64,000 nt of DNA from Chrysomallon squamiferum (Eukaryota; Animalia; Mollusca): the NCBI GenBank assembly GCA_012295275.1, contig CM022673.1, positions 12,772,001 to 12,836,000 of the forward strand. Direction: 5' to 3'. Position numbers and translations under genes: made by a program. Below the pieces are notes generated by a model. The model had not been told where the DNA came from, ran no database searches, and worked only from the letters and a program-made list of their open reading frames with translations. Shown here piece after piece: positions 3,986 through 61,700 of the stretch (its first letter is position 1; every line of letters starts with the position of its first letter).

Positions 3986-4246
3986 AAATAATGGCTGTGG
4001 CGGTGGAAGAGAAATTTTATTCATGTCTGACTCTAATTCTGTTGTCAGACCAGGAGAAAAGAAATGGACAGTTTTGTTTCTTGACCAGTCTGCTAATCTG
4101 ATTTGGTGACTCAGTTTGTAAGGAAATGAGCTGATGACACTAGCAGAAGACAAAAATAATTATATACATTGTGAAAAAAAAAAAAAAAATAAACGAGAGC
4201 TGGTTCCAGAATGTAGGTTCGCTGGTTGAAATAGTGCTAGAGTGGT

Positions 4247-4755
4247 GACTGCTTGTAGCTCAGTGGTTGACTGGTTGTAACAGTGGTTGACTGGTTGTAA
4301 CAATGTTTGACTGGTTGTAACAATGTTTGACTGGTTGTAACAGTGGTTGACTGGTTGTAACTGGTTGACTGGTTTTAACAATGGTAGACTGGTTGTAACA
4401 GTGGTTGACTGGTTGTAACAATGGTTGACTGGTTGTAACAATGTTTGACTAGTTGTAACAATGTTTGACTAGTTGTAACAATGTTTGACTAGTAACAATG
4501 TTTGACTGGTTGTAACAGTGGTTGACTGGTTGTAACAGTGGTTGACTGGTTGTAACAATGTTTGACTAGTTGTAACAATGGTTGACTAGTTGTAACAATG
4601 TTTGACTAGTAACAATGTTTGACTGGTTGTAACAGTGGTTGACTGGTTGTAACAATGGTTGACTGGTTGAAACATGGAATGGTTGTACAACAATGATTGA
4701 CAGGTTATAGTACATTGGTTGATTGGTAGTGGTAAAATGGCTGACTGGTTGTAAT
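4247..4755 (+). repeat. 20-bp minisatellite (GACTGGTTGTAACAATGGTT)n, about 20 copies
   Basis: Directly visible tandem array; accounts for the LQPVNHCYNQS ORFs. Confidence 0.95.
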
Positions 4756-4814
4756 TCTCCATTCCAACTAGTGTTCCATGATGTCATATCAAAAGTACAT
4801 GCTTTCACTGCATT

Positions 4815-5000
4815 TGGGATGCAGCTAAGTGGAAGAGTCTTTGCCTGAGATGTGATCAGTCATTGTCAGTGCCACTATACTTCATATATCAAAGGTCATT
4901 ATGTCTTACCTGTTTATGGGATGGAACATATAAAAGATCCTTTACTGCTAAAAGATTATAGCAGCCAACAAAATGATTGCAGATGGCTTCCATTCTCATC
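4815..5000 (+). mobile_element. Degenerate tRNA-derived SINE-like element
   Basis: A-box-like head GGGATGCAGCTAAGTGG, then body AAAGGTCATTATGTCTTACCTGTTTATGGGATGGAACATATAAAAGATCCTTTACTGCTAA. Reverse-complement relatives occur at 45905, 48530 and 56760. Confidence 0.55.
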
Positions 5001-7254: not shown

Positions 7255-7715
7255 TATGTATATTAGACCCTGTAGATATACCTGGCAATATATCAGACTC
7301 CACAGATATATATCTCAGACTCCACAGATATATCCAGTAATACATCAGATCCTCTAGGTACATCTGGAAATATGTCATACCCTGGAGATATCCAGAAATA
7401 TCTCAGATCATCTAGATTTGTCTGGAAATATCTCAGATACCTGGAGATATATCCAGCAATATATTAGAATCTTCTGACATATCATGCAACATATCAGACC
7501 CTGTAGATATATCCAGCAATGTATCAAACTATGGAGATATATCTGGAAATATATCAGACCCTGTACAAATATTTGGAAATATATGAGACCCTGTAGATAT
7601 ATCTGAAAATATATCGGACCTGTAGATATATCTGGGAATATATCATATCCTTAAGATATATCTGGTAATATGTTAGACCTTGGAGACATATCCAGTAATA
7701 TATCAGACCCAGAAG
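7255..7715 (+). repeat. 30-bp minisatellite (ATATCAGACCCTGTAGATATATCTGGAAAT)n, about 15 degenerate copies
   Basis: Visible 30-bp periodicity. Confidence 0.9.
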
Positions 7716-11425: not shown

Positions 11426-12267
11426 CCCATAATCTCTATCTCTCTGCATAACATCTCTCTTCTCTCTATTTCATTTTCACTCTCTTTCTCTCATAATCTC
11501 TAGATTATCTCTTTGTCTCTGTCTCTTGCTCCCTTTCTCCCTTCATCCCCATACCCCTCTTTCATTTTATTCTTTACTCTTTATTTTTCTTTTTTTTGTG
11601 CTTTATTATGTATCAGATCAAGTTAATTTTATAAGTGTACTAACTGTTTTTATCTAATCAACAGTAAATAATAAGTGCAAACTGCACCCAGTCATTACAA
11701 GTTCAGGTCACGGCTAAGTCTGCAGTGTTTATTTGTTCTAATCAATTGTTAATTGTTCAATGGCATCATTGGAAGCTGACAGTATTTTAAAAATAGTCTG
11801 AGCACAAATTCAAACTTGTTTAGAACAAGAAATGGGCTAGCTGTAAAAAGAGAATATGAATGAGAAAAAGATAGGGAGGTGCTGAGAGAGAGAAATGTCT
11901 AGACAGATAAACAAACAAATACATAGATAAATAGATAGATATATGGATAGTTAAAGAGATAGATAGAGAGATATATAGATACACAGATATATAGACAGAT
12001 AGATAGAGAGAGAGAGACATAAAGAGGATTGTAGAGAGAAGTATATAGAAAGAAATGGAGAGAGATATAAAAAGAGGGAGAGATAGAAAATAGGACAGAA
12101 AGACAGAAAATCATTACAATATAATTATACTATTTAATACAGCATATCAAGTTTTTACTTTAGTCCATGATGTTGCTGAAATATACATGTACAAATACAC
12201 ATCAGATGCACACACTCATAATCAAACATACAAACACACATACTGACACACACATACACAAAAACAC

Positions 12268-12355
12268 ACTTACCTCTGGTGAAGAAAAGACAAAATAATT
12301 GTTGTTTTGCAGTACTTACCTGCAAAAAACAAAAAATAATAAAATGTAGTCAGTA
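12268..12355 (-). other. Recursive splice site (ratchet point) 2 with 46-nt cryptic exon 12319-12274
   Basis: Minus strand reads TACTGAC (branch point, 12355-12349) TACATTTTATTATTTTTTGTTTTTTGCAG|GTAAGTACTGC...TCTTCACCAGAG|GTAAGT. Confidence 0.72.
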
Positions 12356-12588
12356 ATAACAATATTAAAAAAAATGCAAAAACAACAACAACAACATAAT
12401 AATAATAATAATAACAAAATAATAATAATAAAATAACAAAAATATAATAACAGTAATACTAGTAATGATATTAAGAAAAATGAAATATGATAAATAAAAC
12501 ACAAATTATAATGACCATAATTATAATATGTTAATAATAACAGAACTAATAATAAAATAAGAATATCAGTAACTACAGTTGTGGTAGT

Positions 12589-14392: not shown

Positions 14393-15194
14393 TCTTCAAG
14401 ATCAGAATGATAGAGAAAATGTCATTTCAAATTAAAGCACATGATTGTAAATTGATTATTTATTTAAAAAAATACCAATCTTCGTTGTTATTTTTATTAA
14501 AAGTTTATTTGTTTTGACAAGCAAATTAAAACTGAAATTTTATATATATTATTTAACAATTATTTTTAAATTGTTTTTGGAAATTTGAGGACACACTGTA
14601 TTTATATTTTAAAATACTGGTCAATAATAACAATAAAAATTTTAATATAATTTTCGAAGCCAAAACTGACATGTCTCTTTTAGAAAGGTTTAGTAATTTT
14701 GAAAAAAAACACCTAAAATTTCTTCTCCTTCTAAGAAAAACAGGTGAGTTAAATGAGGCTTACAGGTGTGAACAATTTAGTTAAATTAAAACACTGCAGT
14801 TGATGTGTAGTCAAGTTAATTGTGTTTTCTTTAGCACACCTGTAAAAATATTAAATCTCACCTGACAGAAACTGGAGATGAGTGGGTGGAAGATTGATCT
14901 AAGATTTAAGAAAGGTGGATGCCATTAATTTGGTGGATATAAAAAGAAAAAAGAAAAAAAGAAACAACTGTCGATGAAGAATGCAGTTAAGGATTTATTT
15001 AAAAGCTTAAAATTTTTCTTTCTCTTTTTATTAGTTATCCAAGAAGAAGAAGAAACATTTTTTGGTTATCATTGAGAGATATAGTTTGACTAAGAAAGAT
15101 GCTGAAAGTTGAAGCGATTTTAAGAATACATATTTTTATTTTTATTTGACTTAGCATATCAAATCACAAAGGTAATTATTGTTTTTTTTCATTA

Positions 15195-35314: not shown

Positions 35315-35659
35315 TTTATTATCATTGCCATCATCATCAATACATCATTGTTGTTGTTGCTGCTGTTATCATCATTACTAGTGTTATTCTTTTTATTATA
35401 ATTATAAATGTTATGATCAATAATTATTATTATTACCATTATTGTTATTGTTATAATTATTAATATGCTATTGTTATTGTGTTTAGTATTAGTAGTAGTA
35501 TAGCTGTTATTATAATCATCATCATTATTAATATTTTTATTATTACTGTTGTGTCATTATTATCTTTAATGTTTTGTTCTTATTATCATCATCATCATCA
35601 TCATATCAATTGATTTTATCTCTATTTTTCCTAAATCTTTGATAGAACAAAAACAACAC

Positions 35660-35975
35660 TGTGATCCAAACCATCACAGTACATCATGGTACATCAAGAT
35701 ACTTCATGGTACATCAAGATACTTCAAGATACATCACGATACATCAGTCTTATGATCCACCAAACAATGACACTGAAATCCACCAAAATCCACCAATATT
35801 ACAATCCACCAAGTCATCCACATCATGACCCACCATACCACATAGATATATATAAATCATCCGGATGTATCATGGTACATCAAGATACTTGAATATACAT
35901 CAGTTTCAGTATCCACCAAACTTCAACACTGTTATAGAGGATTGAGCCACCCACCTCATGACCCCCCCATACCAC
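35660..35975 (+). repeat. CATGGTACATCAAGATACTT repeats inside a ~185-bp local duplication
   Basis: The unit occurs at 35685, 35705 and 35871, and the downstream ATCCACCAAAC...CATGACCC..CCATACCAC is also duplicated. Confidence 0.75.
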
Positions 35976-36794
35976 ACCAATCACAAGCTCTATCAAAACA
36001 GGCTAATTCATCATAGGATTTGATTGAAGCAGAGAAAAACAACAATAAAAAAAACACTAGTGCAAAATCCTTGATAACTGAAAGCTTCAAAACAGACTCA
36101 CATAACATGACTGTGTGCGGTAAAAAAAAATAACTGAGTTAATTTAGTTCATGTTTCATTTCATTTGATTACTGAACTCTGTTTAATCCTTGCCTTTCTG
36201 TACTGGAAAATTAATTTTCACTGCCGCTCAGTGTTACACATGCAATCAGCAAGATGTTTCTTATTTTATTTATTTATTTATTTATTAATTTGTTTATCAA
36301 TTTTTTTTTTTTTTTTTTTTTTTATTAAATAAAAAATAATAATAAACAAACCTAACTAACTAAATAAATAATTTTATTTTTTTTTTATTTATTTATTTAT
36401 TTTATTTTTTTTTTTTTCAAGATTCATATGTATCAAGTATGAAATATGTATATGTACATAGACAGTTATAAGCACTTAAAGACACAGAAAATTAGAGAGA
36501 AAGATACACAGAGATATGTTACTTCAGGTAGGGTAGTGGTTAGATTAGTTGATTTTATTATCATCATCATCATCATCATCATCATCACAATTATTATCAC
36601 CATTATCACAGATATTATTTAATTATCAAATTCATCATCATTATCATTATTGTTATTGTAACTTAATATTATATTTATTATTATTACTATAATTGATGTT
36701 GTTATTATTATTATTATTATTATTGTAATTACAATATGTTACGTGTTACTATTGCTGTTGCTGTCATCATCATCATCATCATCATCTTTATTAC

Positions 36795-41474: not shown

Positions 41475-41590
<116 letters not shown>

Positions 41591-41673: not shown

Positions 41674-41760
41674 ACTTACCTCTGTTCACTCAAAAATTAA
41701 TAATGTAACAGCAGTACTTACCTGAAAAATAAAAAGATAATTGTGAATAAATAATTAAGA
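41674..41760 (-). other. Recursive splice site (ratchet point) 1 with 42-nt cryptic exon 41721-41680
   Basis: Minus strand reads TTATCTTTTTATTTTTCAG|GTAAGTACTGCTGTTACATTATTAATTTTTGAGTGAACAGAG|GTAAGT. The acceptor is fused directly to a consensus donor, a second consensus donor follows 42 nt later, and a CTTAAT branch-point candidate lies near 41755. Confidence 0.7.
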
Positions 41761-42179
41761 TTTTGGTGAAAGACAATTTACAGTTACAAGTAACAGGAGA
41801 TATAAATGTTGTTTTTGATGGATACATGATGAATATGTGAAGACAGCTCAGTGTATTTTAGTGTTAAAGGATTTAGGTGTCAGACATATTTGAATGTAAT
41901 GGTGAGAAGACGTCTGCTTCTATCACTCTGCTGAGACTTCACTTCTCACTGGAATTAAATCATATATGTATGTGTTTATGTGTTAGTATATGTGTGTCTG
42001 TATGTGCATGTATATGTGTCTGTCTGTGTGTGTGTGTGAATAAATCTTTCATTCTGATCTCCCTGCAGACTCACTTTCTCTATCTCTATATATTCGTCCA
42101 TCAATTTATCTCTCTATCTATTTATATATTTGTCTGTCTCTCTCTATATATATCTCTATATATATATATGAAACATTAG

Positions 42180-42660
42180 TATTTCTAACAGACACCAATA
42201 TGTATGTCAAACACCAGTTTCTCTATCAAAAACCAACATCTCTACCAAACACCAGTGAATCTATTAAATACTAGTGTCTCTATCAAAAAACCCAATATGT
42301 ATGTCAAATACCAGTGTATCTATGAAATACCAGTGTCTTTAGCAAATATCAGAGTCTATTAAACACCAATGTCTCTATCAAACACCAGTGAATCTATTAA
42401 ATACTACTGTCTCTATCAAAAAACCCAATATGTATGTCAAACGCCAGTGTATCTATGAAATACCAGTGTCTTTAGCAAATACCAGTCTATTAAACACCAG
42501 TGTCTCTATCAAACACCAGATCTGTATCAAACACCAATCTTTCTGTTAAACACCAGTGTCTCTATTACAAAAGCAAAATCTCTAACAAAACACCAGTGTC
42601 TCTAACAAACACCATTATCTCTAACAGACACCATTATCTCTAAAAGACACCAGTATCTCT
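42180..42660 (+). repeat. 19-20-bp minisatellite (AAACACCAGTGTCTCTATC)n with a higher-order ~133-bp duplication
   Basis: 42247-42370 is nearly identical to 42380-42500. Confidence 0.9.
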
Positions 42661-60329: not shown

Positions 60330-60790
60330 AATGTAACTTGTCAAATTTACTAACACCATAATGTGCCGAACTCATTAACATACTAACAGATTAATTGGCC
60401 GAACTCACTAACATACTAACATGCTTATTAACAAACTCACTAATATATTAACAGGGTTAGGATATTATTCAATTAAATGCCCAGTGAAAAAACATATTAA
60501 AAGGCTAATTTACAAAACTAACTAACATACTAACTTGCCAAACTCAAAAACATACTAACTTTTCAAACTTACTAACATGCTAACTTGTCACACTCATACA
60601 TATACTAACTTGCCAAACTCTCCAACACACCAATCTGTAAAATTATAACTGCAAAACACACTTACTATGAGACTAACTTGTCAAACTCACTAACATACTA
60701 ACTGATTAATTGCCAAAGACATGTACTAAAAGACTGACTTCTCAGACACACTAACATACTAACAGAACTCACTAGCCACACCAACATATT
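60330..60790 (+). repeat. ~25-bp minisatellite (AAACTCACTAACATACTAACTTGCC)n just inside the first intron
   Basis: Repeated ACTAACATACTAAC units. Confidence 0.85.
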
Positions 60791-60837
60791 ATCTGCTGGA
60801 CTAGAATAGAAAAGAAAACTAAGTAGGAAAGCCTTAC

Positions 60838-61322
60838 TTTTCTAACTTGTGAAGATGAGGAATCCGTCGAGGCTGGACTGGACTGACTCCTGAACAGATG
60901 GCATCTTCATCTAAATTCATCCATGGTATGTGTGTAGGGGTCAAAGGACGCCTTTCCTGGGCTGGAGCATCCATCCTCTTCTTCTCATCAGTAATTCCAG
61001 GTAAAACAATTTCCGACTTTGATTTCACTGTATCCACATTGTCACTGCCTGCCTTTAGTTTGGCAGCATCAACACTGTCCTTCTGTTTTGCACCAGCAGT
61101 GTCAACAGTATCCTTCTGCTTTGTTACAACAGTGTCAGTGTTGTCATTTTGCTTTGCTACAGCATCAACATCATCTTTTTGTTTCACGGTATCGTCAGCT
61201 GCTGCACTGGCCTTTTTCATATCGGCAACATTTTGGGGATTATCTTCATCTTTTCTGGTTTCATTTTGTAAAAGAGTTGTTATTTTTTCAATGTTTTCCT
61301 CCATGATGGTGCTCTGTGCCAT
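60838..61322 (-). CDS. First coding exon of an unidentified large multi-exon gene; disordered acidic/Lys-rich N-terminus with KQKDxVD repeats, then RRPLTPTHIPWMNLDEDAICSGVSPVQPRRIPHLHKLE
   Basis: The only ORF with complex, protein-like composition and raised GC. Start context is AACATGG (A at -3, G at +4) with an in-frame TGA 20 codons upstream. The apparent stop codon lies inside a splice donor (GAA AA|GTAAGG, GT at 60837-60836), so this is an exon with a phase-2 intron rather than a complete gene. Confidence 0.8.
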
Positions 61323-61700
61323 GTTATGGAAATGTTTAAACTTCAGATGAACTGCACAACAGGTAAGATATCCAGGTACTCAGAATCGTTAATGAAATAA
61401 CACAGGTGTTCCGATTTGGCAGTATTACAGGTGTTTTCAAATGATATTCAGAAAGATTATTAGGGGTGGTTGCTGGGGGGGGAGTGTTTTGTAGGGTGTT
61501 CTGTTTATGATCAAGAAATTTACAAAAAAAGTTTATGTCTAGTCAAAATGCTTCAGAGGTAAATTATATCCCAAAACAACATTTTATTTATTTTGATGAA
61601 TATTTTTTGTTCTGTTAATTACTTAAAGTCTTCAGTATTATATATTTTTTAATTATTTGACTGACTGTAAAATAACAGAATCCAGAAAAAAATATTTGTA
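61323..61700 (-). other. Probable 5' UTR part of the first coding exon and its upstream 3' splice site
   Basis: Minus strand reads ATTTTTTTCTGGATTCTGTTATTTTACAG|TCAG with AG at 61666-61665, giving an exon of 61664-60838. A weaker alternative acceptor lies near 61352. Confidence 0.4.

Follow-up and report, generated by a model that had tools for sequence, protein, structure and literature searches.

The window, by which we mean the whole 64-kb stretch of DNA that was analysed, is AT-rich (GC 0.17 to 0.33 per 2 kb), rich in microsatellites and animal-like. Its minus strand carries the coding part of one exon and, far downstream of it, two short units, each of which begins where an acceptor directly abuts a donor and is closed by a second donor. 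The two units are referred to together with their splice signals as cassette 1 and cassette 2.

The upstream exon and the sequence downstream of it

The coding part of the upstream exon (60838..61322, minus strand) starts with an ATG at 61322-61320 and comprises 161 codons followed by AA, that is, it ends in phase 2. It is located approximately 19.1 kb upstream of cassette 1 on the same strand. The native donor GTAAGG (60832..60837, minus strand) follows after ...GAAAA; it was recognised from the sequence, and the fit of one RNA contig, X2, ends at 60837.

Three runs of a single study contain RNA contigs that match parts of the exon (X1 from 61204 to beyond 61500, X2 from 60837 to 61088 and X3 from 60974 to 61236), which establishes that the exon is real. 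From 61204 to past 61500, the X1 contigs follow the genome colinearly and run across an acceptor-like ttgtgcag near 61352 without any joint being listed. As they are colinear upstream of the ATG, the exon continues as a contiguous 5' UTR at least to 61500, and the transcription start is located beyond this position.

The fit of the X2 contig (depth 2.6) stops 1 base past the predicted exon end. Seven of its 259 letters are unplaced, and the table does not give the end of the contig that carries them. If they belong to the 60837 end, they are not the start of a recursive-splicing (RS) exon, because TAAG would match the intron for 4 letters further. If they belong to the other end, the contig breaks off right at the donor, which is how assembly graphs behave at diverging paths. 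This one contig is a weak hint that the donor at 60838 is used. From 60600 to 60836 no RNA contig of X1 to X3 gives cover, but with no more than one or two short contigs per run in this area, the gap in cover is no evidence. Run X5, which comes from another study, is colinear across the exon and the start of the intron at a depth of 40. It has 6 deviating letters and 2 gaps and probably represents DNA from a different individual. At 60832 X5 has T instead of C, which turns the +6 position of the gene-strand donor from G into A (GTAAGG to GTAAGA).

Reading on from the exon into its donor yields AAG TAA, and P0001 denotes the predicted 162-residue product that ends there. No Pfam family matched P0001, a word-indexed search of longer proteins with P0001 returned none at E <= 0.01, and an Atlas feature search with residues 105-162 gave a best score of 0.76, which is under the lead threshold. 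A HMMER search of 1.84 billion representative proteins revealed two matches, P0002 and P0003. P0003 matches a low-complexity repeat only and was dismissed. P0002 is a 158-aa ORF on a 956-kb ENA contig and is the ortholog of the upstream exon. Both sequences are 47% identical overall (73/156), and 33 of 36 residues are identical at the C-terminal end. P0002 begins with MAQ and ends with HLHKLEK, after which a stop follows. Due to this shared start and end, the exon, its start and its phase-2 end before a GT[AG][AG]-type sequence are considered to be conserved in a related species.

We also looked for protein families in the rest of the window. The 301 ORFs include 80 of at least 55 aa and an entropy of at least 3.75, of which 62 were scanned against Pfam; the other 18 have microsatellite- or minisatellite-like translations or are the upstream exon itself. 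In these 62 ORFs no credible family and no further coding exon were recognised, neither across the window nor between 60838 and cassette 1. One match to 7TM_GPCR_Srsx (E 0.0079, 16.1 bits compared to a cut-off of 24.1) is below the threshold and was taken as noise. Rfam and tRNA scans of the window gave no matches either. That no protein family was found in the 62 ORFs fits intronic DNA, and the 60 kb downstream of the exon look like one long intron which runs off the window. The downstream (3') exon was not found within the 64 kb, so that the intron is a presumed one. Some regions contain stop-free frames of tandem peptide-like units (4160-4860, 7276-7650, 35646-36013 and 42189-42546; for example QPVNHCYNQS..., IYFQIYLQGL... 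and MVHQDTSRYI...). They belong to no Pfam family and look like minisatellites or repeat elements.

Two fused splice sites on the minus strand

In cassette 1 the minus strand can directly be read as a pyrimidine tract closed by an acceptor AG at 41723-41722 and a donor that abuts it (CAG|GTAAGT), so that the first GTAAGT (41721-41716) follows immediately after the acceptor AG. The acceptor of this putative ratchet point 1 (41722..41848) comprises a 125-nt AG-free zone, a T-rich tract with 28 pyrimidines in 40 nt, TT at -5/-6 and the CAG up to 41722. The candidate cryptic RS-exon 1 of 42 nt (41680..41721) starts with GTAAGTACTGC, the donor to be regenerated, and ends with CAGAG. It is closed by the donor GTAAGT (41674..41679, with GT at 41679-41678), which would define RS-exon 1. 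The complete minus-strand reading is ...ttatctttttatttttCAG|GTAAGTACTGCTGTTACATTATTAATTTTTGAGTGAACAGAG|GTAAGTtcat. A (UG)n tract followed by (GA)n on the sense strand (41572..41590, minus strand) begins 89 nt downstream of this donor. The initial annotation had described the same layout, namely an acceptor at 41722, a 42-nt unit and a CAGAG|GTAAGT donor, and we found these elements at identical coordinates. Its reading, a ratchet point followed by a short RS-exon whose downstream donor competes, also agrees with the anatomy.

Cassette 2 is located 29.4 kb downstream of cassette 1 and reads ttttttGCAG|GTAAGTACTGC...CACCAGAG|GTAAGTgtgt on the minus strand. The acceptor of the putative ratchet point 2 (12320..12460) has a 139-nt AG-free zone, a T-rich tract with 29 of 40 pyrimidines, TT at -5/-6, GCAG up to 12320 and in addition a branch-point-like motif, TACTGAC. 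The candidate cryptic RS-exon 2 of 46 nt (12274..12319) starts with GTAAGTACTGC as in cassette 1 and also ends with CAGAG. Its downstream donor GTAAGT (12268..12273) runs directly into UG-rich sequence. Both cassettes exhibit sequence features of a ratchet point, namely a fused acceptor and donor, TT at -5/-6 together with a pyrimidine tract, and another donor within the next 100 nt downstream.

When 320-330 nt around each cassette are aligned, the identity between them proves to be confined to CAGGTAAGTACTGC (14 nt) and CAGAGGTAAGT (11 nt), and the fused sites have the eleven letters of GTAAGTACTGC in common. An origin from a repeat was ruled out: nothing but the two splice-signal blocks matches, and since neither the flanks nor the bodies of the units can be aligned, the cassettes are not copies of a mobile repeat. 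A common RNA structure was not found either, the fold z-scores of -0.07 (cassette 1) and -0.91 (cassette 2) being not significant. A search of metagenome_contigs with a gapped pattern of the two shared blocks gave no matches, and in a protein-guided metagenome scan none of the 212 matched pattern stretches was confirmed.

The arrangement was compared with chance expectation. The motif AGGTAAGT occurs four times on both strands of the 64 kb, whereas 1.84 occurrences are expected. All four are located on the minus strand, which is the strand of the gene, and form two pairs, 41723/41681 (42 nt) and 12321/12275 (46 nt). Two pairs within 20-120 nt were seen in none of 2000 dinucleotide-preserving shuffles and one pair in 10 of 2000. 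The AG-free zones of the two acceptors (125 and 139 nt) rank among roughly the longest 1% of AG gaps on the minus strand, and the pyrimidine content of their last 40 nt (28 and 29) is in the top 4% and 3%. The two-cassette layout exceeds chance.

Two further observations were made on the minus strand. In cassette 2 (12312-12338, minus strand) TTTTGCAG and CTGCAAAA form an 8-bp inverted repeat around GTAAGTA, for which the counterpart in cassette 1 consists of CAG/CTG only. A weaker fused site, tctccagtttctgtcAG|GTGAGA at 14862 (14840-14880, minus strand), has 15 pyrimidines in 20 nt and no strong donor behind it; it is probably due to chance and was not counted as a cassette.

The instant stop codon and the competing donors

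The letters AA joined to GTAAGT give AAG TAA, and inclusion of the 42-nt unit would lead to an in-frame premature stop after 162 residues. For the cassette this arithmetic requires the exon that ends at 60838 to be the one directly upstream, as is assumed here; a short unseen exon anywhere from 60838 to 41722 would alter the phase. Cassette 2 yields the same AAG TAA after the phase-2 exon, and the predicted protein ends at residue 162 no matter whether the native intron is retained, unit 1 is included or unit 2 is included. The stop is automatic, because GTRAGT after a phase-2 exon always reads NNG TAA or NNG TGA.

The arithmetic of the initial annotation (phase 2, AAG TAA, 162 aa) can be read from the sequence and is correct. 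Its view of the stop as a built-in feature did not survive, as the stop results automatically from phase 2 and GTAAGT and the native donor gives it as well. The instant stop is a fail-safe by-product and not a demonstrated regulatory switch. Any mis-spliced mRNA which keeps the 42-nt unit would be a premature-stop transcript. Cryptic RS-exons are described as dangerous if included (PMC8605326, PMC5126111), and a broken ratchet-point donor leads to loss-of-function alleles (PMC8605326). Vertebrate RS-exons, which mostly contain premature stops, are described as part of a "binary switch" (PMC5126111), and the interpretation given in the initial annotation is this vertebrate model carried over. 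The poison-exon property is expected and already described for cryptic RS-exons, and it is no discovery by itself.

Duplex energies with U1 were predicted as a crude measure of donor strength, using the motif at the 5' end of U1. For the regenerated donor AAA|GTAAGTAC, which lacks the G at -1 because the upstream exon ends in AAA, the energy is -7.0 kcal/mol. The donor of RS-exon 1, GAG|GTAAGTTC, reaches -10.7 kcal/mol and that of RS-exon 2 -12.6 kcal/mol, while the donor in place at the fused site, CAG|GTAAGTAC, pairs almost perfectly with U1 (-13.5 kcal/mol). Since U1 pairing is weaker for the regenerated donor than for both downstream donors, some inclusion of the units is plausible. The suggestion of the initial annotation that the downstream donor might outcompete the regenerated one gains some basis from this difference in pairing (-10.7 versus -7.0). 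In cryptic RS-exons which are skipped, the regenerated donor usually is at least as strong as the RS-exon donor; this relation, which is not strictly defining, is not seen here.

From the donor-competition rule alone inclusion would be predicted, against the reading as skipped RS-exons. In flies full inclusion was reported when the donor of a ratchet point was made weaker than the RS-exon donor (PMC8605326). Either other determinants favour the rebuilt donor at this locus, or a share of the transcripts is lost.

Probable recursive splicing and its alternatives

According to the published model, a ratchet point starts a short and poorly conserved cryptic RS-exon of approximately 50 nt with a downstream donor at its end. 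This unit is first defined as an exon, spliced to the upstream exon and then removed via the rebuilt donor (PMC8605326; PMC6224609). Judged from the sequence, the 42-nt unit at 41721-41680 is probably a cryptic RS-exon of this kind, consisting of a ratchet point and a helper donor, and one of two that would serve the stepwise removal of the intron. The most probable reading is accordingly constitutive recursive splicing through both candidate RS-exons.

The individual steps, all of which we infer, would be as follows. On the minus strand, an intron no shorter than 60 kb would be taken out in pieces of approximately 19 kb (19.1), approximately 29 kb (29.4) and more than 12 kb (>12.3). The pyrimidine tract, the AG at 41722 and the strong donor at 41679 would first cause the spliceosome to define a short exon. 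The exon ending at 60838 would then be joined to 41721, whereby the donor AAA|GTAAGTAC would be rebuilt at the junction. Use of this rebuilt donor would let the 42 nt leave together with the next piece of the intron, and the same sequence of events would take place at 12320. In the Drosophila survey of Duff et al. (10.1101/006163) recursive segments range from 2.6 to 63.6 kb with a mean of 18 kb, and introns with several ratchet points are described. The segments of 19.1 and 29.4 kb fall into this range, which supports the recursive reading. The same survey gives TT at -5/-6 for 196 of 197 fly ratchet points.

A regulated poison exon is the alternative that survives best, although we regard it as unlikely. 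It would require that the donors at 41679 and 12273 win in some tissues or after some first exons, and AAG TAA would then lead to decay or to the 162-aa product. The stronger U1 pairing of both downstream donors and the full inclusion observed with the weakened fly ratchet donor (PMC8605326) point in this direction. A "binary switch" model exists for vertebrates (PMC5126111), and the cassettes share identical letters beyond the splice consensus. However, the stop is automatic for any phase-2 exon, and the bodies of the two exons are unrelated, as expected of cryptic exons that are skipped. A switch that depends on the first exon, as had been proposed in the initial annotation, finds no support either: the X1 contigs, thin as the data are, run colinear upstream and no alternative first exon was seen in them.

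It seems a little less likely still that AAG TAA at 60839-60834 is the true stop of a 162-aa protein, or that an unseen exon intervenes or the cassettes belong to another minus-strand transcript. The ortholog P0002 with its 158 aa ends at the same residue and is followed by a stop, the 64 kb revealed no downstream exon, and no family was matched by P0001 or by the other scanned ORFs, which all would be in accordance with such a reading. An intron-blind gene caller, however, would end the ortholog ORF at a GTAA donor anyway. It also speaks against this reading that GTAAGG directly follows AA and that the fit of X2 ends at 60837 with no RNA contig between 60600 and 60836, the latter being a weak argument from one contig at depth 2.6. 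If the stop is the true one or another exon intervenes, the cassette falls outside the phase argument, and this would be so for real recursive sites as well.

Several TGTG motifs follow the helper donors. Within 130 nt, 8 were counted in cassette 1 and 10 in cassette 2 (region 12140-12267), compared to 2 after the native donor. These counts correspond to the top 2.6% and 2.1% of the sense-strand positions, for which the median is 0, but the UG enrichment was noticed by eye and post hoc, so that the joint rarity is overstated. Proteins which bind UG repeats repress cryptic exons. Poisoning might accordingly be the default outcome of the cassettes: their own donors pair better with U1 than the regenerated donor does, productive mRNA would need an active repressor of these donors, and the UG tracts would be landing pads for a TDP-43/TBPH-like factor. 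We consider this a very improbable reading. If it were true, the output of the gene would have to pass two successive factor-dependent checkpoints along one intron.

Paired donors could also recruit U1 snRNP and thereby suppress premature polyadenylation. That the cassettes merely bind U1 in a long AT-rich intron without recursive splicing, or that their layout arose by chance, is the least likely of the alternatives: CAG|GTAAGTAC in place indeed pairs with U1 at -13.5 kcal/mol and 15 further GTAAGT on the sense strand indicate that donors are not rare, but U1 binding does not account for the acceptor features that adjoin both fused donors (TT at -5/-6, pyrimidine tract, AG-free zones), and chance gave the layout in about 0 of 2000 shuffles.

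Comparison to known systems

By sequence criteria the locus fits the known class of a ratchet point with a cryptic RS-exon, and we regard it as a candidate for this class and not as a new kind. As described for the Drosophila ratchet points with cryptic RS-exons (Ubx, kuz, Bx and luna; 10.1101/006163, PMC8605326), the fused sites have the form (Y)nCAG|GTAAGT with TT at -5/-6, the units are short (42-46 nt here) and closed by a downstream donor, and a long intron contains more than one ratchet point, the segments being 19 and 29 kb long here. Likewise, the exon body is not conserved between the cassettes and would be disruptive if kept. In contrast, the donors of the fly ratchet points are usually stronger according to PMC8605326, whereas AAA|GTAAGTAC looks weaker than the RS-exon donors. 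A further difference is that the locus is known from its sequence alone and that eleven identical letters, GTAAGTACTGC, are common to its two sites.

The vertebrate RS-exon model (PMC5126111, PMC6224609) resembles the locus in that definition of the RS-exon comes first, competition between its own donor and the reconstituted 5' splice site follows, and inclusion brings a premature stop. In vertebrates the exon junction complex is described as repressing the recursive donor. In the vertebrate model inclusion depends on the use of another upstream exon or promoter, by which a poor donor is rebuilt; an alternative upstream exon was not seen here, where the RNA contigs are thin. With the NMD-coupled poison cassette exons, which are mentioned in PMC8605326, the cassettes share that inclusion would lead to an in-frame stop well upstream of the normal end. 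Those exons differ in that they are observed in mRNA and in that their bodies and their regulation are conserved, whereas here inclusion is a prediction and the stop a by-product of donor and phase.

A review from 2026 gives flies, mice and humans as the organisms in which the recursive mechanism is documented (PMC13149111). If RNA confirms the reading as two candidate cryptic RS-exons, an intron removed recursively through two ratchet points would be added from the AT-rich genome of a non-model animal. Besides, nature has set up a clean test of the donor-competition rule at this locus, as the rebuilt donor without a G at -1 looks weaker than the helper donors, and the conserved coding exon must be expressed in spite of it.
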